Shown here piece by piece: positions 3,337-30,070 of a stretch of 35,112 bases of DNA (position 1 is the stretch's first letter; each line of letters starts with the position of its first letter). The notes under the pieces are model-generated. The model was not told the DNA's origin. It searched no databases and saw nothing but the letters and a program-made list of their open reading frames with translations. The position numbers and the translations under genes are program-made. The DNA is from a virus (lineage: Duplodnaviria > Caudoviricetes). The stretch lies in IMG/VR virus record IMGVR_UViG_3300049913_000038, positions 1-35,112 of that record; one strand, 5' to 3'.

Positions 3337-3466
3337 AAGTCCACCCCCTCGAGGCGGAGCTCGCGCTCGTCACCGATCACGACGGTCTTTCCGTCGAGGG
3401 CCTTCCTCATCCGTCGAGCTTGGTCCCTAAGCTCTGAGCCATACTGGTGACGCGTCCAAAACGCTT

Positions 3467-4399
3467 TTAAATTGTGCTGACCGACTGGATAGGGGTCGAG
3501 GGACTGAGACGGTCCTGCGCCTCCCTCATCTCCTGCGCCGAGATCCCGATATACGACCGGAACGTCTGGTCTATCCTCTCGTGACCCATCAGGGCGGCTA
3601 TCGTTTCGATGTCCGTGTGGGACCGGTGATGTCTGTTCCCGAAGGTGCGTCGCCCGTCGTGCGGTCGGAAGTACACGCCTGCCAGATTCGACACCTGCGT
3701 GACCCTTCGCAGCACGACCTCGTATGTCATCGGCACGATCGTCCGTCTCACCGCGTCCTCCCTGATCAGCAACAAGGCCGGATCCTTCCGGTACCGTTCC
3801 GTCAGCTGCCGCCGGTGCTTCATGTACTCGAGGAGCGGCGCGTAGGTGGCGCGGGACATGACCATCAGCCGCATCTTGCCTCCTCTCCGCCCCTTCGACC
3901 TGATCACGCTCTGACCCGTCGCGAGCAGCTGCTCCGCGTTCCTCGTCGTCAGGCGGAGCATGTCTATCGCCCGCAACCCGTCGTCGACCGCGAGGCTGAG
4001 GATCAGTTCGTGCTCGACCCCGAGGCCTCGAGCCGCGTGCCGGCAGTCCTCGACCTGCCGCTCGGCGAGGAAGATCCCGTCCATCTTCGGCCGCTGCTTC
4101 GCCGAGATCCTCCACTTGCCCGCGTCCGCGTTCCCGCACCACCGCAGGAACATCCTGACCATCGACGCCTTGATCGCCACCGTCGTCTCGCTCCCTCCGA
4201 ATCTCGCCTCGAGCCGGACCATCTCCTTCAGCCCGATCCTCCTCGGGTCCTTGAAGCCGAGCAGTTGCCCGGCCTGTTCCAGCCACATTCGGTACAGGTA
4301 CGCCGACCTCTTCGCCAATGTCGGCGACACGTCGTCCAGATATGCCCTCAGAGCCCTGTGATAGGGACCCTTGAGCTTGTAGGGCATCTCCGCTTTCAC
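3467..4399 (-). CDS. Tyrosine recombinase/integrase (XerC-like)
   Basis: Catalytic motifs GLRAID (R), SKGR (K), PHDGRRTF (HxxR), LMGH (H), RSYI (Y). Confidence 0.92.
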   Translation of the reverse strand: MKAEMPYKLKGPYHRALRAYLDDVSPTLAKRSAYLYRMWLEQAGQLLGFKDPRRIGLKEMVRLEARFGGSETTVAIKASMVRMFLRWCGNADAGKWRISAKQRPKMDGIFLAERQVEDCRHAARGLGVEHELILSLAVDDGLRAIDMLRLTTRNAEQLLATGQSVIRSKGRRGGKMRLMVMSRATYAPLLEYMKHRRQLTERYRKDPALLLIREDAVRRTIVPMTYEVVLRRVTQVSNLAGVYFRPHDGRRTFGNRHHRSHTDIETIAALMGHERIDQTFRSYIGISAQEMREAQDRLSPSTPIQSVSTI

Positions 4400-4470
4400 A
4401 GATACGCCCCGTCCTTTTTACACTTGTCGTCATGCATCCCCATCCTCTCTGCTGAATCTGTAGAGACTCT

Positions 4471-4902
4471 CTACAGCATCTCCTTGAAGTCTTCCCACAA
4501 CGCCTCGACGGCGTAGTCGTACTCGCCGATCCCGATCGGGTCGGCGCCGGTGATCTTCGCCCGGCCCTGCACCCACCGCTTCAGCTCGATCTCCTTGGCC
4601 GAACTCGTCTGGTCCTTCTTCTTCGTCAGCACGCGCTCCAATGCGTCGTCCGTCAGCTTGATGACGAAGCGCCCTGCGCGGAAGACGTTCAGCGGCGGCT
4701 GTTCTTCGGTCTCCCTCGTCACGTCGGGCAAGATCCCGCCTTCGAGATCCTTCTGCCGGAGCCGCTTCCTGACTTCGGTGGCGACCGGCTCCGCGAGTCC
4801 ATACGTCAAGGCCTTCTCGATCTCCTTCTCCGCTGCCTTCGACGGGAACGGCACGGCAGGTCCTCCGTCGATGCTCATCGTGGTCTTCTCTTTCTTCTTC
4901 AG
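4471..4902 (-). CDS. Hypothetical protein
   Basis: Protein-like frame; start either CTG 4902 (GGGGTGA RBS, overlaps upstream TGA) or ATG 4878. Confidence 0.65.
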   Translation of the reverse strand: MKKKEKTTMSIDGGPAVPFPSKAAEKEIEKALTYGLAEPVATEVRKRLRQKDLEGGILPDVTRETEEQPPLNVFRAGRFVIKLTDDALERVLTKKKDQTSSAKEIELKRWVQGRAKITGADPIGIGEYDYAVEALWEDFKEML

Positions 4903-5027
4903 TTTCTCACCCCCTGCGGCACGATCAAGCCGCAACTTTTGCATCTCAGAAAGCCGGCGTAGTAGGCCGGCGCCTTCCTGACCTTGACTGACCCGCACAC
5001 CGGGCACTTTCGCCGGGGAAAGATCAT
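4899..5027 (-). CDS. Small zinc-ribbon protein (42 aa)
   Basis: MIFPRRKCPVCGS..CKSCG; GGAGGGT RBS; ATGA overlap with the upstream ORF. Confidence 0.65.
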   Translation of the reverse strand: MIFPRRKCPVCGSVKVRKAPAYYAGFLRCKSCGLIVPQGVRN

Positions 5028-5191
5028 CGCGGACCCTCCTCGATTCCGCAGGCCCGGTCCATTTCCTTTTTCATCTCCTCGCACTTCTTGCGGAATGGGC
5101 AGTCGGTACAACACATCGCAACGTCGAAAAGGTCTCCAGCACACAGCGGAAGCCAATCGTTCGGAACTCTCGTTCCCGGCGGGATTGGCAT
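5024..5191 (-). CDS. Small Cys-rich protein (55 aa)
   Basis: Manual translation MPIPPGTRVPNDWLPLC..CCTDCPFRKKC..; fills the gap and is coupled to the next gene. Confidence 0.55.
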   Translation of the reverse strand: MPIPPGTRVPNDWLPLCAGDLFDVAMCCTDCPFRKKCEEMKKEMDRACGIEEGPR

Positions 5192-5202
5192 TCCTTCCTG
5201 AA

Positions 5203-5295
5203 TCAGAGCAACACCCCCAGGACGAGCGCCGCATATGCGACGATGATCAGCAGCCCGTAGGCGGGGCCGAAGAAACGGCTCACGAGGTCGGTCAT
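5203..5295 (-). CDS. Single-pass membrane peptide (30 aa)
   Basis: MTDLVSRFFGPAYGLLIIVAYAALVLGVLL; ATGA overlap; GGAGGGG RBS. Confidence 0.55.
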   Translation of the reverse strand: MTDLVSRFFGPAYGLLIIVAYAALVLGVLL

Positions 5296-5855
5296 CGCTT
5301 TGCCCCTCCTACCTCGGACGGCGGCTCTTCGTCGGGGTCCTCCTCCTTCGCGATCGGCGCGAGCGTTCGCTTCAGCCGCTTCTGCCTCGGCCTCGTGAAG
5401 CCGAGCACGTCGTACTCGCCCTTGCCTTCGAGCGGAAGATCTCCGATCCTCGGACACGACTTGATGTGCAGGACGAGGTCCTCGTTCCCCGCGATGGCAT
5501 AGAACTGACTGTACGCGATGTGCCTCGCCTCGTTCGAGCTGCCCGCCTCGATGCCTTTGAAGATCGTCACGAGGTCGGCAGGTTCGAAGACGAGCTGCTT
5601 GACCGGGCCGCCGCGGGCCATGGCCTCGATCCGGTCGCGGATCTCGGAGGCCTCGGTAGCGACCTCGTTGAGGAGCTTCGAGATCTCCTTCGCTCCGACC
5701 GCCTCGGGCTGAGTCCCCATCCTCAATCCCCAGAACGTGAGTTCGCACTGGTCGTCGATTATCACCGAGATGATCTTCCCAGAGAGATGTATGCGGGAGT
5801 GCTCGGTGATCATGGGATCTTGCCTCCGAGCTCGTAGACGATATTCGTCATCCAC
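5292..5855 (-). CDS. Hypothetical protein (187 aa)
   Basis: Protein-like composition; AAGGAG upstream of the GTG. Confidence 0.65.
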   Translation of the reverse strand: MDDEYRLRARRQDPMITEHSRIHLSGKIISVIIDDQCELTFWGLRMGTQPEAVGAKEISKLLNEVATEASEIRDRIEAMARGGPVKQLVFEPADLVTIFKGIEAGSSNEARHIAYSQFYAIAGNEDLVLHIKSCPRIGDLPLEGKGEYDVLGFTRPRQKRLKRTLAPIAKEEDPDEEPPSEVGGAKR

Positions 5856-6010
5856 GCTACTCCTTCACCGAGTCCGTTCATCTTGCCCCGCCAATAGCGC
5901 TCGGCTGCCTTGTCTCCCCGCTTCTTCGCCTTGTATGCCCTGGCCGCCGCTTCCTTGCGCCACTTCTGGAGGGTGGCCCTATACCTGACCGCACTGTCAA
6001 GGACTGTCAC
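5810..6010 (-). CDS. Small basic helical protein (66 aa)
   Basis: GTGA overlap with upstream stop; GGTGAG RBS. Confidence 0.55.
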   Translation of the reverse strand: MTVLDSAVRYRATLQKWRKEAAARAYKAKKRGDKAAERYWRGKMNGLGEGVAWMTNIVYELGGKIP

Positions 6011-6543
6011 GAGCTCACCGCCTTCTTGTCGTGCGCGGCTTTCAGGTCGTTCAGGTCGCTGATGATTGCGCTGGCCTCTCTCGACGTCAGGTCGGCCATC
6101 TTCTCCTTGCCAGCTTTCCTCAGCAGTTCGATGGCGCGCTGGCTCAGGTATGGTTCGCTCTTGCGGATCGCCCATATCGCGTCAAGTTGCTTCTGCGTGG
6201 CCGGCCGGTCGCTGCCCATCGCGGCCGTCTCCGCGGCGGGCTGTTCCGCTGGCGACGTTGGCTTCTCCGTGGGGACTTGCGCCGGCGCAACTTCCGGAAC
6301 GGCTTCGCGTGTGGCCGGCGGCGCCGGGGCAGCTGCCCCCGTCTTCTCGATGATGTCGAGGACCTGTTCAAGACTCGGCAGGAGTCCAGACTTGCCTGCG
6401 TCGACCATCATGCCTCGGAGGATCCCGCATTTCTGCTCGACCGGCAACGCTTCGAGGTCACTCGGAAAATTGAGCCAGCCCATGCGAAAGACCCTTAGAT
6501 ATATCGATACCCAGTAGTCGCATGCCTTGTCCAGATCGGCCAT
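6007..6543 (-). CDS. Hypothetical protein with C-terminal PAT-x-KQ helical module
   Basis: PATQKQLDAIWAI..LTSREASAIISDL, a module typical of phage recombination/ssDNA-annealing proteins; Pro/Ala linker. Confidence 0.65.
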   Translation of the reverse strand: MADLDKACDYWVSIYLRVFRMGWLNFPSDLEALPVEQKCGILRGMMVDAGKSGLLPSLEQVLDIIEKTGAAAPAPPATREAVPEVAPAQVPTEKPTSPAEQPAAETAAMGSDRPATQKQLDAIWAIRKSEPYLSQRAIELLRKAGKEKMADLTSREASAIISDLNDLKAAHDKKAVSS

Positions 6544-6544
6544 G

Positions 6545-6673
6545 TCAGTCCCCCTTCAGGTTCGGCAGGCCGGTCTCGATCTCCGGCGTCGGTGGGGCGA
6601 GCGCGCGTTCGAGGTCTTTTTCGGTCAGGCCGAAGTAGAGCATCAGCCCTCGGACTTTCGTTTCGAGGTCCAT
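6545..6673 (-). CDS. Small hypothetical protein (42 aa)
   Basis: MDLETKVRGLMLYFGLTEKDLERAL..; GGAGGA RBS; fills the gap exactly. Confidence 0.55.
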   Translation of the reverse strand: MDLETKVRGLMLYFGLTEKDLERALAPPTPEIETGLPNLKGD

Positions 6674-6675
6674 GA

Positions 6676-6861
6676 TCAGATCCTCCTGCGTTCAATGATG
6701 GTCAGGTCGCACTTGCCGCACCAGAACTCGACTTTCGTTTCCTTGATATCCATATGTGCAGACATCGCGTCTGCTTGTCTCCCGCATTCGGGGCAGAGTG
6801 GTGCGGCCTGAACGATCATGGCCAAGAATTTGCTGGCCGCCTCGCTGATACTCTTATCCAT
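6676..6861 (-). CDS. Small zinc-ribbon protein
   Basis: CPECG..CGKC. Confidence 0.65.
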   Translation of the reverse strand: MDKSISEAASKFLAMIVQAAPLCPECGRQADAMSAHMDIKETKVEFWCGKCDLTIIERRRI

Positions 6862-6863
6862 GA

Positions 6864-7346
6864 TCAGCGCCCCCTGTCGGGGTCGTGAGCGCCGCCGGAC
6901 ATGTCGTCCGGGTCGAAGTAAGGCTCATCGGTCCCAGGCACAACGAACGGCCCCTCCGTCTCTAGAATTAGTTTGAGGTCGTCCTGTGTCGCCTCGCCCC
7001 TTAGTTGACGCTGCTTGGCTTCGCCGTAGGGCGTCAGTGGCGACGTATCCTTTGGAGGGACGACCGCCTTCTCCTGCGGTACGACCCTGATCTCCACCTT
7101 CATGCCCGTCGCCTTCTCGATCGCAGCCGCCGTGTTGACGACGATATCGGGCGTGAGGATCTCCGGCGTGACCGCCTCGTCCTTCACCGTGACCGTCGCT
7201 TGGAGCGTAGGCTTGACGAAGAGAGCATCAGGCAATCTGACGTCCAAGTAGATCGCGATCTCGTCGGCCTGCAAGGTGGGCTTGTTCTTGACGAATCTCG
7301 GCGCCCTGTACTGATTGATGACGAGCCATCCTTCCTTGTAGATCAC
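6864..7346 (-). CDS. Hypothetical protein (160 aa)
   Basis: GTGA-coupled; protein-like composition. Confidence 0.7.
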   Translation of the reverse strand: MIYKEGWLVINQYRAPRFVKNKPTLQADEIAIYLDVRLPDALFVKPTLQATVTVKDEAVTPEILTPDIVVNTAAAIEKATGMKVEIRVVPQEKAVVPPKDTSPLTPYGEAKQRQLRGEATQDDLKLILETEGPFVVPGTDEPYFDPDDMSGGAHDPDRGR

Positions 7347-7609
7347 GGCACCGCCTCCGTAGGCAGCTTCCCCTTTCGTCCGCCGTCGATCCCGTTCGCC
7401 TCGAGTTCGAGTTTCGCCCTGACCATGAAGTCCTTCATCTCGTCGAAGCGCTTTCTCGCATCCTCCGGCTCCGCGATGTTCACATAGATCTTCGCCCTGA
7501 GATTCGCCGGGCCGAACTCAAGGCTGTCCTTCAGGTCTCCGTTCTCTTGCCTGTGGACCATCTCGATGATCATGTTCGCTTTGACAACTTCCTTTTGTGT
7601 TTCTCCCAT
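7343..7609 (-). CDS. Hypothetical protein (88 aa)
   Basis: GGAGG RBS; first gene after the structured leader. Confidence 0.7.
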   Translation of the reverse strand: MGETQKEVVKANMIIEMVHRQENGDLKDSLEFGPANLRAKIYVNIAEPEDARKRFDEMKDFMVRAKLELEANGIDGGRKGKLPTEAVP

Positions 7610-7629
7610 ATCTTTCCTCCCTGAATACT

Positions 7630-7870
7630 GGCAAAAGAAATAACAGTGAAAAGGGCCGGTCGGGTTCGAACCGAGAAGAAGAGCTGTGTAGACCTCTCAG
7701 TCCAAGAAGGAATTGGGTCCCCGGCCGGCTTGTCAGGGGGATGGCGGGCCGGGAATGTACCAAGAATGCGGTGGGCAAGTTGGAAAAGACCCCCGACCCG
7801 TTATCAGATGAAAGGTCGCCAGCCCCGGTCAGAAGGTGATGGATGCACTCGATCGGGGCTGACGATTGAG
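7630..7870 (-). ncRNA. Candidate structured RNA/leader with three GC stems, the last tRNA-like
   Basis: Complementary arms 7851-7865/7816-7830, 7790-7799/7746-7755 and 7720-7729/7655-7664; GGTTCGAACCC T-loop; followed by a T-rich tract. Confidence 0.45.
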
Positions 7871-7888
7871 AATCATATGAAAAATGCA

Positions 7889-8044
7889 TCATGTAGCGCC
7901 CTCCGCCAATCTCTTGCTGTAGTAGGCTCGAAGCGCCTTCCGTAGGGCATCCGAACGGTCCTCAGCCCGACCCCCATCTACGTCATCATCAAGCAATTGG
8001 ACGAGAGAAGGGGGAAGTCGCACGGGGACCACTACAGTTTTCAT
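7889..8044 (-). CDS. Ribbon-helix-helix (CopG/Arc/MetJ) regulator, Cro-position (51 aa)
   Basis: Not in the ORF track; MKTVVVPVRLPPSLVQLLDDDVDGGRAEDRSDALRKALRAYYSKRLAEGAT. Confidence 0.85.
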   Translation of the reverse strand: MKTVVVPVRLPPSLVQLLDDDVDGGRAEDRSDALRKALRAYYSKRLAEGAT

Positions 8045-8149
8045 CACTATCTGTATACACACATGCCTATTTAATGATTATCAGTATTGCATGGGTACGT
8101 ACAATGGATTAAATATCCAGATGAAATAATGTATACACTTAGTGGACAC
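8045..8149. promoter_or_regulatory. Divergent promoter/operator region
   Basis: ATTAAATA on minus (8068-8075) and plus (8108-8115); TGTATACAC at 8052-8060 and 8130-8138; GTACGTAC palindrome at 8095-8102. Confidence 0.7.
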
Positions 8150-8353
8150 ATGGCAAGGTATGACAAGAGCGGTCCGACCCGCGTCATGAACGTCAGGATG
8201 CCGGTTGCGTTGCTGGACGAATTGGAACGGATGGTCAAGAACGGCGAGACCCCCTACTCCAACGTTTCGGAACTCGTCAAGCAGGCCATAAGGGCGGAGT
8301 TGGATCAGATTAAGAAGGAAAGGGCTGGTCTGATCATGACCGCTGAAGGATAA
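8150..8353 (+). CDS. Ribbon-helix-helix regulator, repressor-position (67 aa)
   Basis: RVMNVRMPVALLDELERMVKNG..YSNVSELVKQAIRAEL; ATG 8150 preferred over track start 8087, which lies inside the promoter. Confidence 0.85.
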   Translation: MARYDKSGPTRVMNVRMPVALLDELERMVKNGETPYSNVSELVKQAIRAELDQIKKERAGLIMTAEG

Positions 8354-8604
8354 TCTTGACCACATCCCTGCATTCGTCCAATGCTGTTTGGATCTCCTCG
8401 CGCTGTTCGCCGCCCACCACGGCGTCCAGTTCAAGGGTGAGCTTCGTTTCAATCGCCTCCTGCCTCTCAGGACCTCGTTCGAGGTCGATGCGTTCGATTG
8501 AGGCATGGAAAGCTAGGCGACGAGAAGGTAAAGGGGCAGAGGAGAGGTGAGCGAAACTATATGCCCTAGGGCCCGAATGATAATTACGGGGAGGGGAGAA
8601 GTAG

Positions 8605-9135
8605 ATGAAAGTCGTCGAATGCCGCCAATGCGGAGGCTGGGTGCCGATCGAGGCGGAAGTCTGCCAGACGTGCGGCCATCGAATGAAGAAGATAGAGAGA
8701 CCGATGGAGATCTCAAAGAATCCGATCCCCAGTCATATCGGGCCAGTTTTCTATGATGATAAGATATCAGGGATGAAGTTCTCCAGGCCGAAGGGATTTG
8801 TCGGAAGCACCCCGCGAAATTGGATCGATAAGAATCTGTCGAAATGTCCTTTCTGTAAGACGGTCCGTCCGGGATGGGAAGGGGCCATGCAATTCAAATT
8901 GAAAGCGACCCTGTACCATTTTCGATGCCCGCGTTGTCGGGGGATTCTAGCGATTCCCGTAGTTGCCGTGCAAGGATGGACCAATGCAGGTCTCCTTGGT
9001 CCAGGAGGACTTCTCGGCAAGGCTGTGACGACGGACAAGATCAGGATTGAGAGCACGGGGGGATCGGGATCAGATCTAAGGCTCGGGGCGGAATATTCAG
9101 TGGAGGAATTGCGCAGGGTCGCCAGGGACAAATGA
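8605..9135 (+). CDS. Multi zinc-ribbon protein
   Basis: CRQC..CQTC, CPFC..CPRC; GGAGGGG RBS. Confidence 0.75.
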   Translation: MKVVECRQCGGWVPIEAEVCQTCGHRMKKIERPMEISKNPIPSHIGPVFYDDKISGMKFSRPKGFVGSTPRNWIDKNLSKCPFCKTVRPGWEGAMQFKLKATLYHFRCPRCRGILAIPVVAVQGWTNAGLLGPGGLLGKAVTTDKIRIESTGGSGSDLRLGAEYSVEELRRVARDK

Positions 9136-9153
9136 TTAGACGAGGATAGAGAC

Positions 9154-9627
9154 ATGCAAATGGTCAATAGGAAGAAGGTCGCCGCTTCAGGTATGATTAT
9201 CTTTTCATTGATCATCATGATCGCGGTCTCGGGCTGTTTAGGAGGCGGGGGGGTCATCTGCAAGTTCGACCTCAGTGTTTCGACGACGACCCATGTAGGT
9301 GAATATTACCCATCGCTGAATCGATATCAATGGGAAGCAAGTCCGGGATACCAGTTCGCGATAGTGACAATCAGGATCGTCAATGATGCGGAGAAGAGCG
9401 TCAGTACGAACGCTTTCTACTGGACGTTGACGGTGTCGGGAGTCGGGTATACCGCCCATACTGCGACCTGGGACGATTCGATCGGCTATCAGACGGTCGA
9501 TGTCGGCAAAGGCGCAGACTTCACCACGAAGATCGTCTACGAGGTCCCGGCCAGCGCTTCTTATTTCTATCTAAGCTACAATGGATACGACGCGCCGAAG
9601 ATGGAGCAGGATTCAGCCTTGCTTTGA
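9154..9627 (+). CDS. Lipoprotein with Ig-like (DUF4352-like) domain
   Basis: Basic N-terminus, hydrophobic helix and SGCLG lipobox; ASPGYQFAIVTIRIVN..IVYEVP..LSY pattern. Confidence 0.75.
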   Translation: MQMVNRKKVAASGMIIFSLIIMIAVSGCLGGGGVICKFDLSVSTTTHVGEYYPSLNRYQWEASPGYQFAIVTIRIVNDAEKSVSTNAFYWTLTVSGVGYTAHTATWDDSIGYQTVDVGKGADFTTKIVYEVPASASYFYLSYNGYDAPKMEQDSALL

Positions 9628-9656
9628 TCATCATCCGCCGATGAGATCTCAGACGC

Positions 9657-9884
9657 TCAGATATCCACCGTGATTTTCGCCAGTTTGCCGGTCGCATCGA
9701 CGACCCACTTGCCCTCTCTCGTGCCGGCCGCGACCCCGACGTCGACGATCTCCATCGCAGCCTTGACCGTGCCCGTGTAGTTCACGCCGTCGATGGTGAA
9801 TGTCACAGGCTTGTCGCCCTTGCCAACGATTAGGACCGCTCCCGTGTCGATCTGCAGGTAGTTCTTTACCATGATGAACTTCAA
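9657..9884 (-). CDS. Small beta-rich hypothetical protein
   Basis: Protein-like frame; start may be ATG 9872. Confidence 0.7.
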   Translation of the reverse strand: MKFIMVKNYLQIDTGAVLIVGKGDKPVTFTIDGVNYTGTVKAAMEIVDVGVAAGTREGKWVVDATGKLAKITVDI

Positions 9885-9901
9885 AAGGTGATGATATTAA
9901 A

Positions 9902-11140
9902 TCATCGGCGCGTGAGCAGCGCGTTCATACCTAACGACGCGGCGCTGTCCACGAACCTCGCTTCCGTCACGGTCCCGATCGGGTTCGGGTCTTCGCTAGG
10001 CATTGGAGGAATCGAATCCATCAACGCTTGACTTGGAGGCCAATCCGGGTAATAGGGAATCATCATCGAAGCCATTGCATCAATCCCGACCTCGTAGGCT
10101 ACCTGCGTGTCCCACTTAGAGTAGAGTTGAGCGTAGTCCGTCTGTCCTCCACCATACTCGGCAGGAAGCATATAGTGTCCGAGAGCATAGTCCCAACAGT
10201 CATATCCATATTCGCCTAGAAGACAGGGCTTGCCAAGGTCGTTGCTCCATTTCTTCATCTTAGCGAAGTAATCATTCACCGGGTCGTAATCGAACGAGAC
10301 TCGCTTGCCGTAGATGTGTTGATGCGTGATTTGACAGGGATGGTCATTCGCTCGTTTGAAGTCTGTCTCGCCGTAACCGTGCATCAAGGCTCCCGCCGCA
10401 GTTCCCATCGTGAACAGATGAGTCGGGTCGAAGGGCATGATGTCGTTGCAGATTTGATTCGACCAGTCGTGCCACGCTTGCTCCGCGACCTGATGAACTA
10501 GAGTAGGATTCGTGTCGTGCGGAACTCCTGCGAGTTTGCTCCACCACACTCGCCAAGGTCCGTCTCCGTCAGGTTCGTTCGCAATCTCCCAGCAGAGAAT
10601 CGCAGGGTCATCAAGATAGAGAGGCATGATGTCCTTCGCCAACTTGACATATTTGAGATATTCAGGACTTCCGAGTTTGTAGGCATTGTTCGCTTCCCAC
10701 GCGGCGATTTGCTCGGGAGTGCCGCCTGAGGGAGGACCGAGGGGCGAACCGAATCCAAAGACGATGTAGACCTTGTTCCAGTTCGCCATCTTCAGCATCG
10801 AACCTACGATCTTGTCCCACCATGCCCTGTGATTGTAGAAGCAGTCCGAGAGGCGACTGTAAGTGTAGCCATTGCTCGTCCTCATCAGATTCACTCCGTA
10901 GTGATTCAACAGCCAAAAGTATTTCCACATGAACTCCTCGACAGTCGATGCTGGAATCTCCCCTCGCGGAGTCGTTGGAAACAGGGCATTTGATGTCAGG
11001 TATTGCGAATAGTTCTCAGCGAGAAGCGTCTTGTATGGCAACATGATTGTATCATTGAAACCATGACCGATGAATCGTTGCCCGGCCGCTTGCAGTTCCT
11101 TACCAACTTGGACGACTTTCGACAGCGCCATGATCGACAA
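9902..11140 (-). CDS. Clan GH-A (GH5-like) glycoside hydrolase, candidate endolysin
   Basis: GVNLMR, ILCWEIANEPD (acid/base), HIYG, KPCLLGEYG (nucleophile); no signal peptide; start may be ATG 11131. Confidence 0.85.
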   Translation of the reverse strand: MSIMALSKVVQVGKELQAAGQRFIGHGFNDTIMLPYKTLLAENYSQYLTSNALFPTTPRGEIPASTVEEFMWKYFWLLNHYGVNLMRTSNGYTYSRLSDCFYNHRAWWDKIVGSMLKMANWNKVYIVFGFGSPLGPPSGGTPEQIAAWEANNAYKLGSPEYLKYVKLAKDIMPLYLDDPAILCWEIANEPDGDGPWRVWWSKLAGVPHDTNPTLVHQVAEQAWHDWSNQICNDIMPFDPTHLFTMGTAAGALMHGYGETDFKRANDHPCQITHQHIYGKRVSFDYDPVNDYFAKMKKWSNDLGKPCLLGEYGYDCWDYALGHYMLPAEYGGGQTDYAQLYSKWDTQVAYEVGIDAMASMMIPYYPDWPPSQALMDSIPPMPSEDPNPIGTVTEARFVDSAASLGMNALLTRR

Positions 11141-11180
11141 TCATCCGGTGCTGATATTCAACGAAAGACCCGGACTATTT

Positions 11181-11220
11181 AGAAAAAAAGGGGGGAGGAA
11201 AGAGGGAAATGAGAAAGGGT
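11181..11220 (-). terminator. Pyrimidine/oligo-T tract, candidate archaeal-type terminator
   Basis: Minus strand is almost all C/T and ends in CTTTTTTTCT directly after the holin-like gene. Confidence 0.45.
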
Positions 11221-11228
11221 TTGTGGCG

Positions 11229-11549
11229 CTACGATGCCGGCTTCTCTTCGAGGATCTTCTTCCCGCCGGTCAATATCGCCCTCGCCGACCCCATGCCTCC
11301 GACCCCAATCATCACGATTCCAGCAAACACATACGGGTCGAGGATGTCCACGCCATTGCTCAGCATGACCCAGATTTGGTAGCCGACGGCGATTTGAGCG
11401 CCGATGTAGAACTTCACCACGGTCAGAAGGAACTTCTTGTCCCACACCGTCACCGGTTCGTCCCACCATCTCAAGAGGACGGCGAGAACTGCCGCGATGA
11501 TCGCGGCCATGATGACGGCAGCCGTGACGACTATCGCTACGCTCGGCAT
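11229..11549 (-). CDS. Holin-like membrane protein (three predicted TM helices)
   Basis: 106 aa, three hydrophobic segments, charged C-terminus; lies between the tail genes and the hydrolase. Confidence 0.6.
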   Translation of the reverse strand: MPSVAIVVTAAVIMAAIIAAVLAVLLRWWDEPVTVWDKKFLLTVVKFYIGAQIAVGYQIWVMLSNGVDILDPYVFAGIVMIGVGGMGSARAILTGGKKILEEKPAS

Positions 11550-11618
11550 TGCAATACCTGAGGCTCGAAAGACCGGGGCTGATACTAATCGCTTGACAGA
11601 GGTTTCGCCGGCGAAAGT

Positions 11619-11885
11619 CTAGATGAAGAAGCCGATCATGATGCCCACGATCGTGATCCCTGCGCCGGCGATGATATACGCGACACGGCGTCCGCCACGG
11701 AGCTCGTCCTGTTCCTTCTTCAGCGCTTCGATATCCTTCACGACCGTGGCATGAGCCTCCGCGCCGAAGGGACATGTGGTAACTCCTAATTTGATAAGCT
11801 TCACGTCGTCCTTCATGTCCCTTATCTCATCGAAAAGGGTCTTCACCCTCTCATCGATCCTTATCAACAACTCTTCGTTCGGCAA
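11619..11885 (-). CDS. Coiled-coil protein with C-terminal TM helix (lysis-associated, XhlA-like architecture)
   Basis: LLIRIDERVKTL..IEALKKEQDEL plus C-terminal hydrophobic helix. Confidence 0.65.
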   Translation of the reverse strand: MPNEELLIRIDERVKTLFDEIRDMKDDVKLIKLGVTTCPFGAEAHATVVKDIEALKKEQDELRGGRRVAYIIAGAGITIVGIMIGFFI

Positions 11886-11964: not shown

Positions 11965-13935
11965 TCACGGTCCTGGGTCCAAATCAATTCCAGAAGTATC
12001 AACCAGCACGATTTGCGTCATGCCTGCCGGTTTGAAATTCGATTTGCTCTCGACCATGTCCCTTAACTGGGAACCTAGTTCGTATAAGGCCCGGCTGCTG
12101 CTCAGGGTAACCTTGTACTGATGGTCCACACCCCTAGCCAATCTGAACTCGAGGCTGACGATGATGTAATCGTCATCAATGTTGTAGTCAGTATGTTTGA
12201 CATGCTGGGTCATCCCGACCCTTAGGCCATGGTCATAACGGGTTGTATAGCCGAGGTTCGTCCCGACCAGAAGGGCCTCTACCAAGGCTCCAAGGGCCAG
12301 CATCGAACCATGGTCGATCGAGGTGACAGTGGCGAAGTCGGTGAACTGTTCATAAATCCCACTTCCACCCTCCGCTGCCTTCTTGGCCGCTATGACAGAA
12401 TCGACTTGGGCGATGAACAGAAGATATTGGGTCTCGCCACTGCTATTCACAACTGATCCTCGGGCCAGGATCCTGTTCGCGTATTGCCCAGTTGAATCAA
12501 GCAAGTCAAATGCAATCGGATAGCCTGAAGTATTGATATTCGAGTTGTCGATGTTGAAAGGCGCGGAGATGACGAATGGGTCATGGAACCGGAGTTCCTT
12601 GTAGGAGTCCACATACCAAACGAAGGCCGAATATTGCTTCAAATCATCGAGCATCTTTCGAGCCTTCTCGAACTGCCACCTGGCGAAAACAACTGTCGCC
12701 CCATCAGATACCGTTCTCACCCCTATCTGCTCGTCTTGGAAATAGCGAGGTATGTACGTCTTGAGGACATCGCCAGCCTTCTTGTTGGCCGCAGTGCCTG
12801 ACACCAGCCGTTCATCCAGCCTTCCACTATAATCCACGCATCTGATTTTCGAGTCGAACGTGTCAGGCCCGACCTTGTCGATGGTGACATCATCGACCCG
12901 TCCAGTGAAATAACGATAAGTCACTGTCTGATTGCCGTGGGTGCCGGAACCTGTGTAAGTCCCAAGCCAATCGGTGATGCAGACACCCCAAGCAGGATAA
13001 GTATGCGGTGAGTTGGAAAGAGTGCCATCGTAATTGTTGGCAGTGCCGTCATTGACATTTGTGCCTGAACCGTCATCCATCTTCCAGTACTGTTGAAGGC
13101 TTGATTCGTTGCCCGCCAGCAGTGAGTACTTCCGGCTATCGATGAGGCTTGACGAAATGGCAGCAGTGAAGAATCGGTGATCTGAAATATAAGATTCGCC
13201 GATTGGCATGTAAGCCTGATACTTCGGCGCGAAATAGTTGGCGATTTGGTTCGAGGCGTCGTGTGTCAACCAGCCAGTCCCTGAACCAGTTGCGGCTGAT
13301 GACCCGTTTATGTAAAGGGTGAATGCTGTCGAGCCTGGCGAGCCACCTGTATGCTCCCAAACCAGTGATACCCTGTACGGTGTCCCTTCAACAAAAGAGA
13401 GCCCAGTAGTTTGAAATTGGACGGGATAAGTCATGCCACTTCCATAATGGGTCGAAGTAGTAACCCTATATTGATGTGTCTTAGTCCCAGAGTCATAATA
13501 AAGCATGAAAGCGATGAAATTATACAATTCATCACCGCCCGCATCACAGCCAACGAGCCAACCTTGGAAGAAAGATGTGCCACTGGCTAAGAGGTCTTCA
13601 AGGCTCTCTTGGATGCAGAACATAAATTCCATCGTCCCTGTCTCACCGTTCCCAACCATCGGGACCGCACACGATTTTGCCGCTCCATCGTGAAATAAAT
13701 TCCAAAGCAGCCCTGGCGGCCCGTAAGGGGCAAATGTGTTCGAGAGGTCCACTGTCTCGGTGGCCGAAGAGTCTGAAAGGATGACTTGCTGACCAGGTTC
13801 GAAGAAGACAACGCTACCCCTTTGTTGATGGATTGTGAACTCTGCCGTAGACCGAGAGCCTAACTTATCGATTATTCTCAGACTCCTTGGGTCATAGTGC
13901 CTAGTCGTCCCTCCAATCGTCAAGTTGACAGTCAG
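11965..13935 (-). CDS. Tail tip/hub protein with inserted LamG (ConA-like) domain
   Basis: Follows tape measure; YFTGRVDDV..CVDYSGRLD hub-like segment; LYING..ISDHRFF..YWKMDDGSG LamG motifs; start CTG 13935 or TTG 13923. Confidence 0.75.
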   Translation of the reverse strand: MTVNLTIGGTTRHYDPRSLRIIDKLGSRSTAEFTIHQQRGSVVFFEPGQQVILSDSSATETVDLSNTFAPYGPPGLLWNLFHDGAAKSCAVPMVGNGETGTMEFMFCIQESLEDLLASGTSFFQGWLVGCDAGGDELYNFIAFMLYYDSGTKTHQYRVTTSTHYGSGMTYPVQFQTTGLSFVEGTPYRVSLVWEHTGGSPGSTAFTLYINGSSAATGSGTGWLTHDASNQIANYFAPKYQAYMPIGESYISDHRFFTAAISSSLIDSRKYSLLAGNESSLQQYWKMDDGSGTNVNDGTANNYDGTLSNSPHTYPAWGVCITDWLGTYTGSGTHGNQTVTYRYFTGRVDDVTIDKVGPDTFDSKIRCVDYSGRLDERLVSGTAANKKAGDVLKTYIPRYFQDEQIGVRTVSDGATVVFARWQFEKARKMLDDLKQYSAFVWYVDSYKELRFHDPFVISAPFNIDNSNINTSGYPIAFDLLDSTGQYANRILARGSVVNSSGETQYLLFIAQVDSVIAAKKAAEGGSGIYEQFTDFATVTSIDHGSMLALGALVEALLVGTNLGYTTRYDHGLRVGMTQHVKHTDYNIDDDYIIVSLEFRLARGVDHQYKVTLSSSRALYELGSQLRDMVESKSNFKPAGMTQIVLVDTSGIDLDPGP

Positions 13936-21151: not shown

Positions 21152-21166
21152 GCTGATATTTCAATC
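21152..21166 (-). promoter_or_regulatory. Candidate late promoter motif GATTGAAATATCAGC
   Basis: Identical 15-mer at 30043-30057; both intergenic and about 60 nt upstream of structural genes. Confidence 0.65.
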
Positions 21167-21205
21167 GGAAAGGGAAGATGGAGGGAGGATTTCGCCGGTG
21201 AAAGG

Positions 21206-23828: not shown

Positions 23829-26800
23829 TTACTCCTTCAGTCCTTGTTGCCAGTATTTCTTAGTTTCCCGTCCCTGAGCGTCCTTCTTCTCGGTCTCGCC
23901 TTCGAGGTCCTCGTCCCGACGCTCTCCCTTGATATGCTGCTCCGGCGGCGTCTGCCCGTCGACATCGGCGGCCGTGAGCTCACCTCTCAGTCTCCGAAGG
24001 ACCACGATGCCCGTCCGGACGCGGGTGACGACTTCTGAGAGGGAGATGCTGTCCGAGGTGAGCAGTTGCTTTGTGAGCGCGATCAATTCTGCGGAAAGTA
24101 GAAGATCATCTGAGATCGGGAAAGACCTGAAAGGACGAGACTCTTCATCGAGCAAGCCTGTCGATTCGAGAATGACGACGGCCTTGTTTCGTAGGACGCT
24201 CTCCTCATATTCTGCTCTGATCTCGCTCGCTGTTCTTGCGATCTTCGAGATTGAGACTTCATCAATGTACCCATCATAGAACTGGTCAGCGATATACCAT
24301 CCCGGAGGGTCATGCCATACCCAGTCTGCCCCGATCAATAACGGTTGTCCAGAAGCACTATTTGAGATGTTTCTGGTCGCTGGACCATACATGATGCCAT
24401 TCTTGTAGAACCAGACATCAGGCTTTTTGAAGACGATTGCGATATGTTGCCATTGATTTAGTTCAACCGTAGTTGGAGCCCAACCCATCCATCCTGCCAT
24501 TTCCACAAGGAAGTAAGAGCCACTTGTCTTCAACCCCCATGAACCCCAAGGCCAGCCCTTGTCGATGATGCCCTTATCGGAGGATTTCGGATAGACCCAC
24601 ATTGAGATAGTCAGTTCATCTGCGAGTGTGAGATCAGACTTGTCATCAATCTGTATGTAATCATCAATCGCGTCGAAGAATGTCGCTCCTCCACTGATCG
24701 CCTTGTCTGCCTCACCTGCTCTGACCCCTCCATTCTCAGTCCCATCATGCCCCAATCCAGTGAGGTCTTTCAATAGACCTCCAGCCGTCAGCGTTTCCAT
24801 GTTTGTCGCAAGGATGAGATTAGGGTCTGAGTAGTCTTTCGGAGAGGAGAGACGAATGCCTTCGTAGAGAATCAGATTCTTATCAAGTCGTCCTTGGTCG
24901 CTGAGAAGCATCGCATCAACAATCAATTGTGCCTTTCCAGAGAGTGCGAGGTCTTGAAGACCAATCTGATCTTGAGCAATCACTCCTTTTGAGAGAAGGA
25001 TGGCATCAAGGGTCTGAAGGACATCTTGCACGAAGGCGGTTTTGTTAACTAATTTCGAGTCCGCGAGGGCGAGTGCATCCATGACAATCATCAGCAATTT
25101 ATCTCTACTCGTCTGATCTGAGAGAATGATACTATCAGAGGCAATCGTCAGGTCCTTGTCCGTCTTTGGACCATCAGCCATGCCAATTGACTCGCTAATT
25201 GTAATGTATCGAGTCTTGAGTCCTTGGTCGTCAATCGTTATTGAATCTTGAATTGGAATCAAGGTCTTATCCCTTAGGCCTACATCTGAGAGAGTGATGG
25301 ACTCAATGATGAGTCCAGTCATCAATTTTACGAGAGCGTCAGTCAACCCAATCGAATCGAGTTCAACGACTTCCTTTCCTCGATAGTCAGCGTCAGTCAG
25401 GTAGAGGTTTTCGAGTATCGTCAATGCTTTGTCCCTCGTTCCTGAATCTAAGAGCGCGATCGAGTCGAGTATCGTCTTGAACTTCTGGACTGGAGCCTCG
25501 TCTGAAAGACCAATGGCATCGGTGATGTAGATGAGTAGGGTCTTCAGGACATTGACGACATCCACGACCCCGATCGAATCTGTCTCGACGACCTCCTTTC
25601 CTCTGAATATGGCATCGACAAGTCCGATAGCGTCTGCGGTCGTCGTCGGGGTCTTTCCGACCAGGACGGAGTCGGCCAGACCAATCGCGTCCAAGACGGT
25701 CTGAGCAACGGCCGTGACGAGGTTTGCGACATCTGTGAGGACCATCGAATCGAGTGTGAATTTCTGAACGACTGAGGGAAGATTGAGGAGGTAGGCATAG
25801 TTGTAGTAGGAGCTATGCGCCAGAGATGCCCACACATCGTAAGTTCCGCAGTTTCGTTCGGCGGCGAGATATGCCCACCATCCAGAAGCCCACGATGAGA
25901 ACTGGACCTTAGAGATATAGGGCGCTTCCCCAGTCATTCCTACATACCTCGAATAAGAATAACTCGAGGCATTATAATACGCGAAGAACGCAAGTTGCCT
26001 GTCGCATCTCTTATCGACTGAGATTCCCACTGTAACATCAGACCAAGAAGACCCGTCTCCGGTATCTGGTGCTGTCGCCACCGTCTTGATCGTACCGACG
26101 ACCCCATTGGCGATTCTGACATACTTGATCCCTTGACCAGTCGCTCCATAGACCCACACGACATAGATGTTGCCATTGTCGTCAGAACTCGCAGACCAAG
26201 CGTTAGGACCGTAGAGGTCAGAGCAGACGAGCCCGACGTTCTGAAGGCTCCCTCCCGAGTAATGCTTCATGCGAATCGAGTACGAACCCGCTGTCGTCCC
26301 GGTCACATAGAGGATGGCTGCCTTGACAGTCGAGCCGTTGCAGTTCAGGATCTTCATGGCGGAGCAGTTGCCGTTCGAGTTATCGACTATGATGTTGCTC
26401 CCGAAACTGCCCCATGTCGCCGAGCTCTTGACCTTCGGATACTTGTCGCCGGATCCTCCGCTCGTCTCGATGAATCCTAGCCAAAAGGTCGAATCGGCGT
26501 AGGCGCAACAGACTTCGCTCTGGACCTCGCCGGCATTGGAGTAGGCTGAGGTCTGTCCTGACCAAGTGATATAGATCGCAGGAGCGCCGGGATACGCAGG
26601 AGTCCCTGTCCTGATGTAGATCGTCGTCCCAGTCAAGAACGCAGTTCGCCATCTCAGATTGACCGAATCCCAGAAGACATCGTCCTTCTTGTCGTCGCCA
26701 GCCCCGACTCCGTGGTCGTCGATCAAACCGTAAGTCGTCGATGTATCTGTCCCATAGAAGTCTGGAGAGGAAGTGTGTTTGAAGTACCGTCCATCGTGGC

Positions 26801-30042: not shown

Positions 30043-30057
30043 GCTGATATTTCAATC
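30043..30057 (-). promoter_or_regulatory. Candidate late promoter motif GATTGAAATATCAGC
   Basis: Identical to 21152-21166. Confidence 0.65.
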
Positions 30058-30070
30058 AGAGACGGAGCGG

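Follow-up and report, generated by a model that had tools for sequence, protein, structure and literature searches.

The window, by which we mean the whole stretch of 35,112 bases analyzed here, codes for terminase, portal, gpF, capsid, cement, tail terminator, tail tube and tape measure proteins as well as for ParB and a tyrosine recombinase, as revealed by Pfam, PHROGs and NCBIfam searches. It represents a tailed virus, likely with a host in the order Methanomassiliicoccales. Relatives of its integrase (36-46%) are spread over several families of this order, which makes the order, rather than any one of its families, the likely host group. No tRNA or att clue was found, and no tail genes are present in the regions flanking the 11 integrase matches within Methanomassiliicoccales. 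The two sequencing runs holding most of the window come from freshwater sediment; none of the listed runs holding window sequence is an RNA run. Hub coverage is missing in runs X3-X5, an observation that was given no weight.

All four ORFs that the first-pass annotation had placed after the last tail gene are present on the minus strand, where it had put them. These ORFs and the associated features are as follows (G002 is a related virus described below):

9154..9627, plus strand: DUF4352 lipoprotein-like gene closing the variable slot (Pfam PF11611; absent from G002)
9657..9872, minus strand: 71-aa beta-rich ORF that travels with GH5 (absent from G002)
9887..9901, minus strand: promoter-like motif again, some 29 nt upstream of the beta ORF (8.3 bits with the independent matrix, a weaker match)
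9902..11131, minus strand: GH5-fold glycosidase P0001, 409 aa from ATG, without signal or anchor (Pfam, PDB, model)
10211..10213, minus strand: Glu307 in the GEYG motif, the predicted nucleophile (unchanged in all 32 aligned members)
10574..10576, minus strand: Glu186 of NEP, predicted acid/base, role by analogy (invariant in 32 of 32 aligned members)
11147..11161, minus strand: promoter motif of TATA-like/late type, some 30 nt upstream of the GH5 ATG (motif scan)
11183..11223, minus strand: polypyrimidine/T7 tract, likely terminator (95% identical in G002)
11229..11549, minus strand: 106-aa membrane protein, 2-3 TM, holin candidate (hydropathy)
11578..11593, minus strand: promoter-like motif with the core RTATCAGC, 36 nt upstream of the 106-aa gene (variant also in G002)
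11619..11885, minus strand: 88-aa coiled-coil protein with a C-terminal TM helix, candidate holin partner (KD19 max 2.27)
11965..13923, minus strand: last tail gene, hub-like with a LamG-like insert (two GH5 domains of the P0001 family are present in its homologue P0059)
21152..21167, minus strand: strong motif copy GATTGAAATATCAGC ahead of the scaffold/capsid operon (the same in G002)
30043..30058, minus strand: strong motif copy GATTGAAATATCAGC before the virion gene block after TerL (identical in G002)

P0001 matches Pfam family PF00150 (E 3.6e-8; 33.7 bits against a gathering cut-off of 23.5). Its AF2 model (pLDDT 85.5) is a (beta/alpha)8 barrel, which together with the profile match places it in glycoside hydrolase family 5 (clan A). 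The top solved matches found by Foldseek (E 6e-11) are GH5 mannanases/mannosidases at 12-17% identity, and the sequence also matches PDB entry 3ziz (E 2.8e-5). The GH5 call, made earlier from the letters alone, thus holds by profile and predicted structure, and so do the two catalytic glutamates (E186 and E307) and the lack of a signal peptide that came with it. In GH5 enzymes the acid/base is the Glu of an Asn-Glu pair and the nucleophile is another Glu, accompanied by Arg and His-x-Tyr. In P0001, R84, N185, E186, H272, Y274 and E307 (with H272-x-Y274) are invariant across all 32 aligned relatives, while the column of Ser355 is Trp in 13 of the 32. Hydropathy revealed no hydrophobic segment at either terminus; by this measure P0001 is soluble and without an export signal, as expected of an endolysin. 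Neither Pfam nor the AF2 model revealed any recognizable attachment domain, and the protein appears to be a bare catalytic domain. Diverged alleles are present in runs X3 and X4; the GH5 start of a diverged allele, read from loose contig ends, likewise lacks a signal. Among the best-supported rows of the changes listed for these alleles, all 12 at 10700-10748 fall at third-codon positions, which argues that the GH5 gene is under selection.

As a first guess, GH5 chemistry and the nearest structures point to a beta-linked mannose- or glucose-containing glycan as the substrate. P0001 shares its barrel and catalytic residues with GH5 subfamily 7 beta-mannanases/mannosidases (8gf3, 3ziz, 4lyp, 1uuq), but in addition to the low identity the TM-score is about 0.5, and other GH5 subfamilies score nearly equally. 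GH5 folds also occur in tailed bacteriophages (Erwinia, Klebsiella, Pseudomonas and Lactobacillus phage proteins in BFVD); however, these proteins of bacterial viruses are mostly 570-870 aa long, show 10-14% identity and lie outside the family of P0001.

The 106-aa protein, initially described as a 3-TM holin-like protein, is a genuine membrane protein, but its TM count is two to three, with a strong first segment (KD19 2.98) and two weaker ones (about 1.2 and 1.6). It has the generic features of a holin (small, 1-4 TM segments, a charged C-terminus, here rich in Lys and Glu, and a position beside a hydrolase), yet neither it nor the 88-aa protein matches any described holin family in Pfam, PHROGs or NCBIfam. 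In Atlas, unnamed tailed-phage clusters (0.87-0.88) rank above holin-bearing ones (0.77-0.78), which we treat as a lead only. We therefore use 'holin-like' for the two membrane proteins as a candidate label drawn solely from size and position. Relatives of the 106-aa protein were found only at 85-98% identity, and scans with its 94% relative or with the DZR gene gave no new contexts. No relatives of the 71-aa beta ORF were detected in the sequences fetched; its tail-tube likeness in Atlas (0.81) is at chance level and likewise only a lead. In contigs from runs X3 and X4 the end of GH5 continues into a diverged start of this ORF, and an X3 contig with 28 differences over 473 bases spans the region from the 106-aa gene to the GH5 start.

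In agreement with the first-pass annotation, no amidase, lysozyme or peptidase lysin was recognized among the 37 window ORFs searched against Pfam and PHROGs or among the 17 proteins searched against NCBIfam. A Pei-type peptidase domain with pseudomurein-binding repeats is also absent from the window ORFs scanned with these three resources. Could a conventional lysin lie beyond the window, as was considered initially? A capsid search returned three loci, including G002, a record of 35,766 bases with a 78% identical capsid, colinear with the entire window. We take G002 to be a closed circle because its ends overlap by 108 bases at 99%; IMG/VR itself lists it as linear with 51% completeness. The alignment suggests that the window misses only about 1 kb of replication genes, from the ParB end to the RusA start. 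A hidden conventional lysin is therefore unlikely.

G002 retains both membrane genes, the 88-aa one at 60% identity (L002/G002) and the 106-aa one at 37% over 73 aa, along with the 41-base pyrimidine/T tract. Right after this tract the similarity ends, and it picks up again at the DZR gene. In between, G002 has a 53-aa and a 36-aa ORF; GH5 was not found in G002 with the family profile. Nor was a substitute lysin, since the six G002 ORFs scanned gave a methyltransferase and ParB alone. Judged by this comparison, GH5, the beta ORF and the DUF4352 gene form a swappable insert, and the earlier idea of a swapped module stands. The same comparison suggests that the membrane gene pair can occur without a recognizable lysin. 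An obligatory three-gene lysis module is hence not supported: the closed relative, the host of which may differ, does without GH5, so the enzyme is not needed for lysis throughout the group. The low GC content originally taken as a hint of the swap is real (52.9% for GH5 versus 58-61.5% for head genes), but values just as low are seen in the hub (50.8%), in the 1842-aa virion gene (53.2%) and in the DZR gene that G002 retains (53.9%). We therefore rejected it as weak proof.

The T tract is the only minus-strand run of at least six T in the window. Since it precedes GH5, the enzyme is likely not co-transcribed with the membrane genes. The motif TTKAATATCAKCACC is present about 30 nt ahead of the ATG of both GH5 and the beta ORF; any chance figure for it is circular, because the motif was drawn from these very sites. 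The independent matrix was trained on five sites with the GH5 and beta sites left out. With this matrix the GH5 site ranks second among non-training positions of 70,192, and 20 shuffles produced 0-3 sites equalling it anywhere (mean 1.35). Motif variants also lie ahead of the 106-aa gene in both viruses and of the 53-aa ORF in G002, while the core has 11 copies in the window, several within genes. The changes listed for the diverged X3/X4 alleles lie to the sides of the motif and of the T tract, and none falls inside either. With moderate support from these signals, we infer that GH5 transcription is late and separate. This speaks against a single lysis module as first drawn, with GH5 lying behind a conserved T tract and having a promoter-like motif of its own.

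Only two close homologues of P0001 were found, P0002 (48%) and P0003 (47%); the C-terminus of the latter consists of Cys-rich repeats and a TM anchor. The full scan for the family gave 54 matches with different layouts: many have a signal peptide and a C-terminal anchor, some an anchor without a signal, and some neither. One cellular member sits in a MAG titled Methanomassiliicoccaceae, and host-clade proteins are named in the sources as Methanomassiliicoccus sp. and Ca. M. intestinalis. The 32-member profile matched 26 of 251 Methanomassiliicoccales genomes. These include every genome sampled from the family of G010 (24/24) and only 2 of the other 227 sampled from the order, where absence means not found in the sequence searched; host-clade scores are high by construction because the profile includes host-clade sequences. 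A second profile matched 2 of 47 genomes in the family of G001. In a sample of the phylum, for which no more than four candidates were scored in each genome, the five matched genomes (of 401) all belong to the family of G010. A GH5 family specific to one methanogen lineage and common to host and viruses, as judged by its distribution in sequence, is the most solid new point of this analysis.

Among the host-clade matches listed (120 of 136), NEP is present in all 120, whereas the N-terminus is hydrophobic in 95 and the C-terminus in 76. Several of the 25 proteins without a hydrophobic N-terminus look start-truncated. Secretion, considered at first pass as an argument against a lysis role, is thus indicated by signal peptides for most cellular homologues but not for P0001. 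In a quick tree, P0001, P0002 and P0003 form a fully supported trio outside the family-of-G010 clade; their half of the tree comprises signal-less copies and a second signal-bearing set that includes a G001 copy. Two mannanase-like proteins lie apart on a long branch, and long-branch joins were flagged for L104 and for domain 2 of P0059. The neighborhoods of host GH5 genes (12 loci) feature a dehydrogenase-PTPS-GT4 cluster and a CDGSH gene; none of the 12 proteins scanned from them was recognized as a polysaccharide synthase.

The homologue survey yielded seven virus-like contexts, including the window, and one fusion protein, P0059. One of the contexts is provirus L104 in genome G033, which is related to the window in TerL (41%), portal (35%), scaffold (35%) and integrase (40%) and also has gpF and the hub in common with it. 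At the end of its tail block are genes for a 40-aa TM protein, an 845-aa beta-helix+GH5 protein, a 110-aa protein with an N-terminal TM segment and an 80-aa coiled-coil-TM protein. The last of these comes after GH5 and resembles the 88-aa protein of the window in layout. Next, on the opposite strand, is a DUF4352 gene, which corresponds to the end of the slot in the window. The proposed holin linkage of homologues therefore finds a counterpart in L104, but small membrane neighbors are clear in only two of the seven contexts (the window and L104), while four (L157-L160) show structural-looking blocks. In tailed virus L161 a stand-alone signal-less GH5 lies between RusA and the terminase, far from structural genes, the position occupied by the lysis cassette in lambda. 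The 83-aa ORF upstream of it was rejected as a clear holin, being mildly hydrophobic (KD19 max 1.5).

Contexts L157-L160 we read as viruses from their gene content. In L160, two GH5 domains follow a tail-block gene homologue (36%, E 6e-24), and L159 has a 2159-aa protein with two GH5 domains amid large structural-looking genes. A Dit-like end in L159 was not upheld, as the hub profile failed to confirm the L159 genes. L157 and L158 have TM-anchored GH5s amid other anchored proteins, and in P0059 two GH5 domains are joined to a complete hub, which matches that of L104 at 27% over 404 aa (E 2e-34). Virus-like records thus contain GH5 in three forms: soluble, tail-hub-fused and membrane-anchored. 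The possibility that GH5 is a virion component, noted at first pass as contrary to a lysis role, consequently applies to some homologues, tail-hub-fused or anchored in virus-like clusters, and not to P0001. IMG/VR scans with GH5 and with a three-sequence alignment found no relative, and a motif scan returned 65 loci with no true family member among them. None of 50 TerL-related virus records matched; these are mostly fragments and the search had no positive control, so the result was given no weight. Two annotated TerL-related records look distant, and one of them, G270, encodes an amidase-like protein by our own reading. The G240 hub contig ends too early for a lysis slot to appear.

How does this locus compare with known systems? 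Like holin-endolysin and PeiW/PeiP/PeiR systems, it combines a hydrolase lacking a signal with small membrane genes next to it, where the tail block of a temperate tailed virus ends, and it is likely expressed late. Unlike the Pei peptidases, its enzyme is a glycosidase, and unlike in either system it is dispensable in a closed relative and has its own promoter-like motif. To our knowledge, pseudomurein is not known in Methanomassiliicoccales. In the accessible part of PMC5628862 its presence there is only speculation. According to the accessible text of PMC10791045, Pei enzymes are the only archaeal virus wall hydrolases listed, there is no functionally characterized archaeal holin, and the exit of tailed viruses from archaea without pseudomurein is still open. 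In the available portions of PMC10791045 and PMC12596118, the lytic proteins known from archaea are Pei peptidases and pyramids, holin candidates being uncharacterized; GH5 or cellulase is not mentioned in the main text of PMC12596118. We found no literature on the GH5 family of P0001 or on an archaeal virus glycosidase endolysin, most subscription papers and supplements lying outside the scope of the search.

The envelope of Methanomassiliicoccus has been described, in the sections available, as a double-layer wall of unknown composition that stains Gram-positive (PMC5628862), possibly with an outer membrane (PMC4243693), whereas PMC4153887 sees no prominent wall in micrographs of M. luminyensis and regards activated mannose and N-glycans as likely possible. 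A precedent for an archaeal virus glycosidase domain directed against a host surface glycan is the SSV19 tailspike VP4. As given in the accessible part of PMC12042106, SSV19 virions release mannose from host N-glycan, an activity attributed to the tailspike mannanase domain; this endo-mannanase domain is also a topic of PMC9351363, to the extent available. VP4 is, however, a 137-kDa structural protein with an endo-mannanase-like domain against alpha-mannan that acts at entry in a spindle-shaped virus of Sulfolobales, whereas the window has a stand-alone GH5 barrel in a tailed virus, likely of a methanogen.

The accessory glycosidase is real and well conserved, and its role would lie in lysis or entry. 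Peptidoglycan hydrolases of bacteria and their phages occur as autolysin, virion lysin and endolysin forms of one family. The substrate of GH5 is probably a glycan of the host envelope, because every sampled genome of one methanogen family has the GH5 family, mostly with signal peptides, because virus-like records have tail-fused and anchored forms too, because this pattern matches that of peptidoglycan hydrolases, and because the likely methanogen hosts barely use carbohydrates. The target proposed at first pass is thus likely by host-family distribution, but the endolysin role would be accessory rather than obligatory.

Our preferred explanation, which we hold tentatively, is that P0001 is a late, optional envelope glycanase released by holin-like proteins. 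The enzyme would be made late in infection, as suggested by the motif common to two structural operons. Since it has no export signal, it would leave the cytoplasm as a soluble protein through a membrane lesion formed by the neighboring holin-like proteins and would then cut the surface glycan of the predicted Methanomassiliicoccales host as an accessory endolysin. On hosts without the glycan the membrane genes alone would suffice for lysis, which would account for G002 lacking GH5; the G002 host would be without the glycan, as most of the order is without the family. We favor release through a lesion because P0001 has no signal, anchor or attachment domain, and because of its gene position and likely late motif. 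A number of observations argue against this explanation: the G002 membrane genes occur without GH5 or a recognized substitute, GH5 lies behind the T tract, few of the virus-like contexts have clear small membrane neighbors, one of the two closest homologues (P0003) is anchored, P0059 is hub-fused, P0001 falls outside the family-of-G010 clade, no prominent wall is visible in M. luminyensis micrographs (PMC4153887), and no holin family was matched.

The main rival, possible though less likely, is that the enzyme acts on the host glycan from outside. It might be a depolymerase attached to the virion, for which the 71-aa beta protein could provide the link, or a receptor-destroying enzyme set free at lysis that detaches progeny from cell debris. 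An outside role draws support from the absence of GH5 from G002, from the separate promoter and from the structural homologues: the hub with two GH5 domains (P0059), the L160 pair behind a tail-block homologue, the 2159-aa L159 protein and the anchored L157/L158 proteins. A late-type motif suits a virion protein just as well, many host-range accessories are dispensable in the same manner, and the SSV19 virion, as described in the accessible part of PMC12042106, offers a precedent of host N-glycan hydrolysis. P0001, however, is a bare catalytic domain with nothing recognizable for attachment, its gene lies past the membrane genes and the T tract outside the tail block, the L161 copy is distant from structural genes, and the tail-tube likeness of the beta ORF does not exceed chance.

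It is unlikely that GH5 is a moron-type lysogenic conversion gene, expressed from its own promoter in the lysogen and blocking superinfection by cytoplasmic trimming of glycan precursors or by a surface change. Such a gene would fit the integrase of the virus, the TATA-like motif that follows a likely terminator, and the variable slot with its neighboring DUF4352 lipoprotein gene, and a depth-2 contig from run X7 weakly agrees, with the GH5 start and motif after a different upstream sequence; yet the motif matches those before the capsid and virion operons, which indicates late control, and P0001 has no export signal. An auxiliary metabolic gene degrading environmental mannan or cellulose is very improbable, despite plant-glycan mannanases/mannosidases being the nearest solved structures and freshwater sediment the source of the two main runs, given the low identity to those enzymes, the lack of a signal peptide, a family restricted to virus-like records and a single archaeal lineage, and likely hosts that are methanogens with scant carbohydrate use (PMC9723712, available part).

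Returning to the late, optional envelope glycanase, we consider a broader evolutionary proposal possible, if speculative: the wall or coat of the Methanomassiliicoccus family may be a lineage-specific glycan remodeled by its own surface GH5 autolysins, and viruses may have recruited this family both as endolysins (the window and provirus L104) and as tail-borne lysins (P0059). If true, archaeal tailed viruses would have another lysis chemistry in addition to that of the Pei peptidases. There would also be an envelope marker gene and an enzyme with which gut and sediment methanogens could be lysed in a genus-specific manner. Signal-less and soluble, P0001 would be a reagent for studying both viral exit and the host envelope, since the material that it releases would identify the polymer.

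The window virus carries several features beside its GH5 gene, some of them shared with G002, a colinear relative:

1013-2116, gene for a 367-aa protein that bears HTH-like parts as well as several C2H2 zinc fingers
11162 and 11566, 12-base near-repeat (CGAAAGACCCGG / CGAAAGACCGGG)
11965-13923, hub-like gene carrying a LamG-like insert
21152-21167 and 30043-30058 (G002: 20810 and 28976), copies of GATTGAAATATCAGC upstream of two structural operons
23829-29357, 1842-aa gene flanked by the packaging block and the portal

The 1842-aa gene codes for a LamG domain and Asp/Leu-rich repeats, and its product probably serves as a large appendage of the virion outside the tail block. Related repeats are present in G002, in the provirus of genome G033 and in L158, a virus-like locus. 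The hub-like gene, a candidate host-range gene, is only 33% identical to its G002 counterpart, whereas head genes show 78-90% identity. The zinc-finger protein, also kept in G002, is a candidate viral transcription regulator. GATTGAAATATCAGC, conserved in both viruses ahead of the two operons, is a candidate for the late promoter of this virus group. The near-repeat lies immediately 5' of both the GH5 gene and the 106-aa gene (the holin candidate), beside promoter-like motifs.

Within the methanogen family of G010, all 24 genomes examined contain members of an uncharacterised GH5 clade (L070-L100, L195-L206), with 1-7 matches each. The majority of these proteins bear signals, and PKD/Ig domains are frequent among them. 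A dehydrogenase-PTPS(-GT4) cluster adjoins the GH5 gene in half of the loci examined (6 of 12).

L158 (Ga0209048_10004241) and L157 are virus-like gene clusters in which many proteins lack a signal, are anchored at the C-terminus and contain Cys-rich repeats, an anchored GH5 among them; possibly, the clusters represent membrane-containing archaeal viruses. Another virus-like locus, L159 (Ga0208980_10000452), codes at 3424-9903 for a 2159-aa protein in which two GH5 domains share one chain with PKD and a repeat region rich in Lys/Arg; the next gene, of 1087 aa, contains CBM96. P0046, a pilin-like protein with a class III signal, combines LamG with a GH5 domain from the family of the window's enzyme.

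One carrier is a tailed provirus with a beta-helix+GH5 gene, residing in a genome from the family of G010:

G033:C1:148000-167999, provirus L104, with L163 and L164

This provirus is apparently complete, and it is a candidate inducible model.
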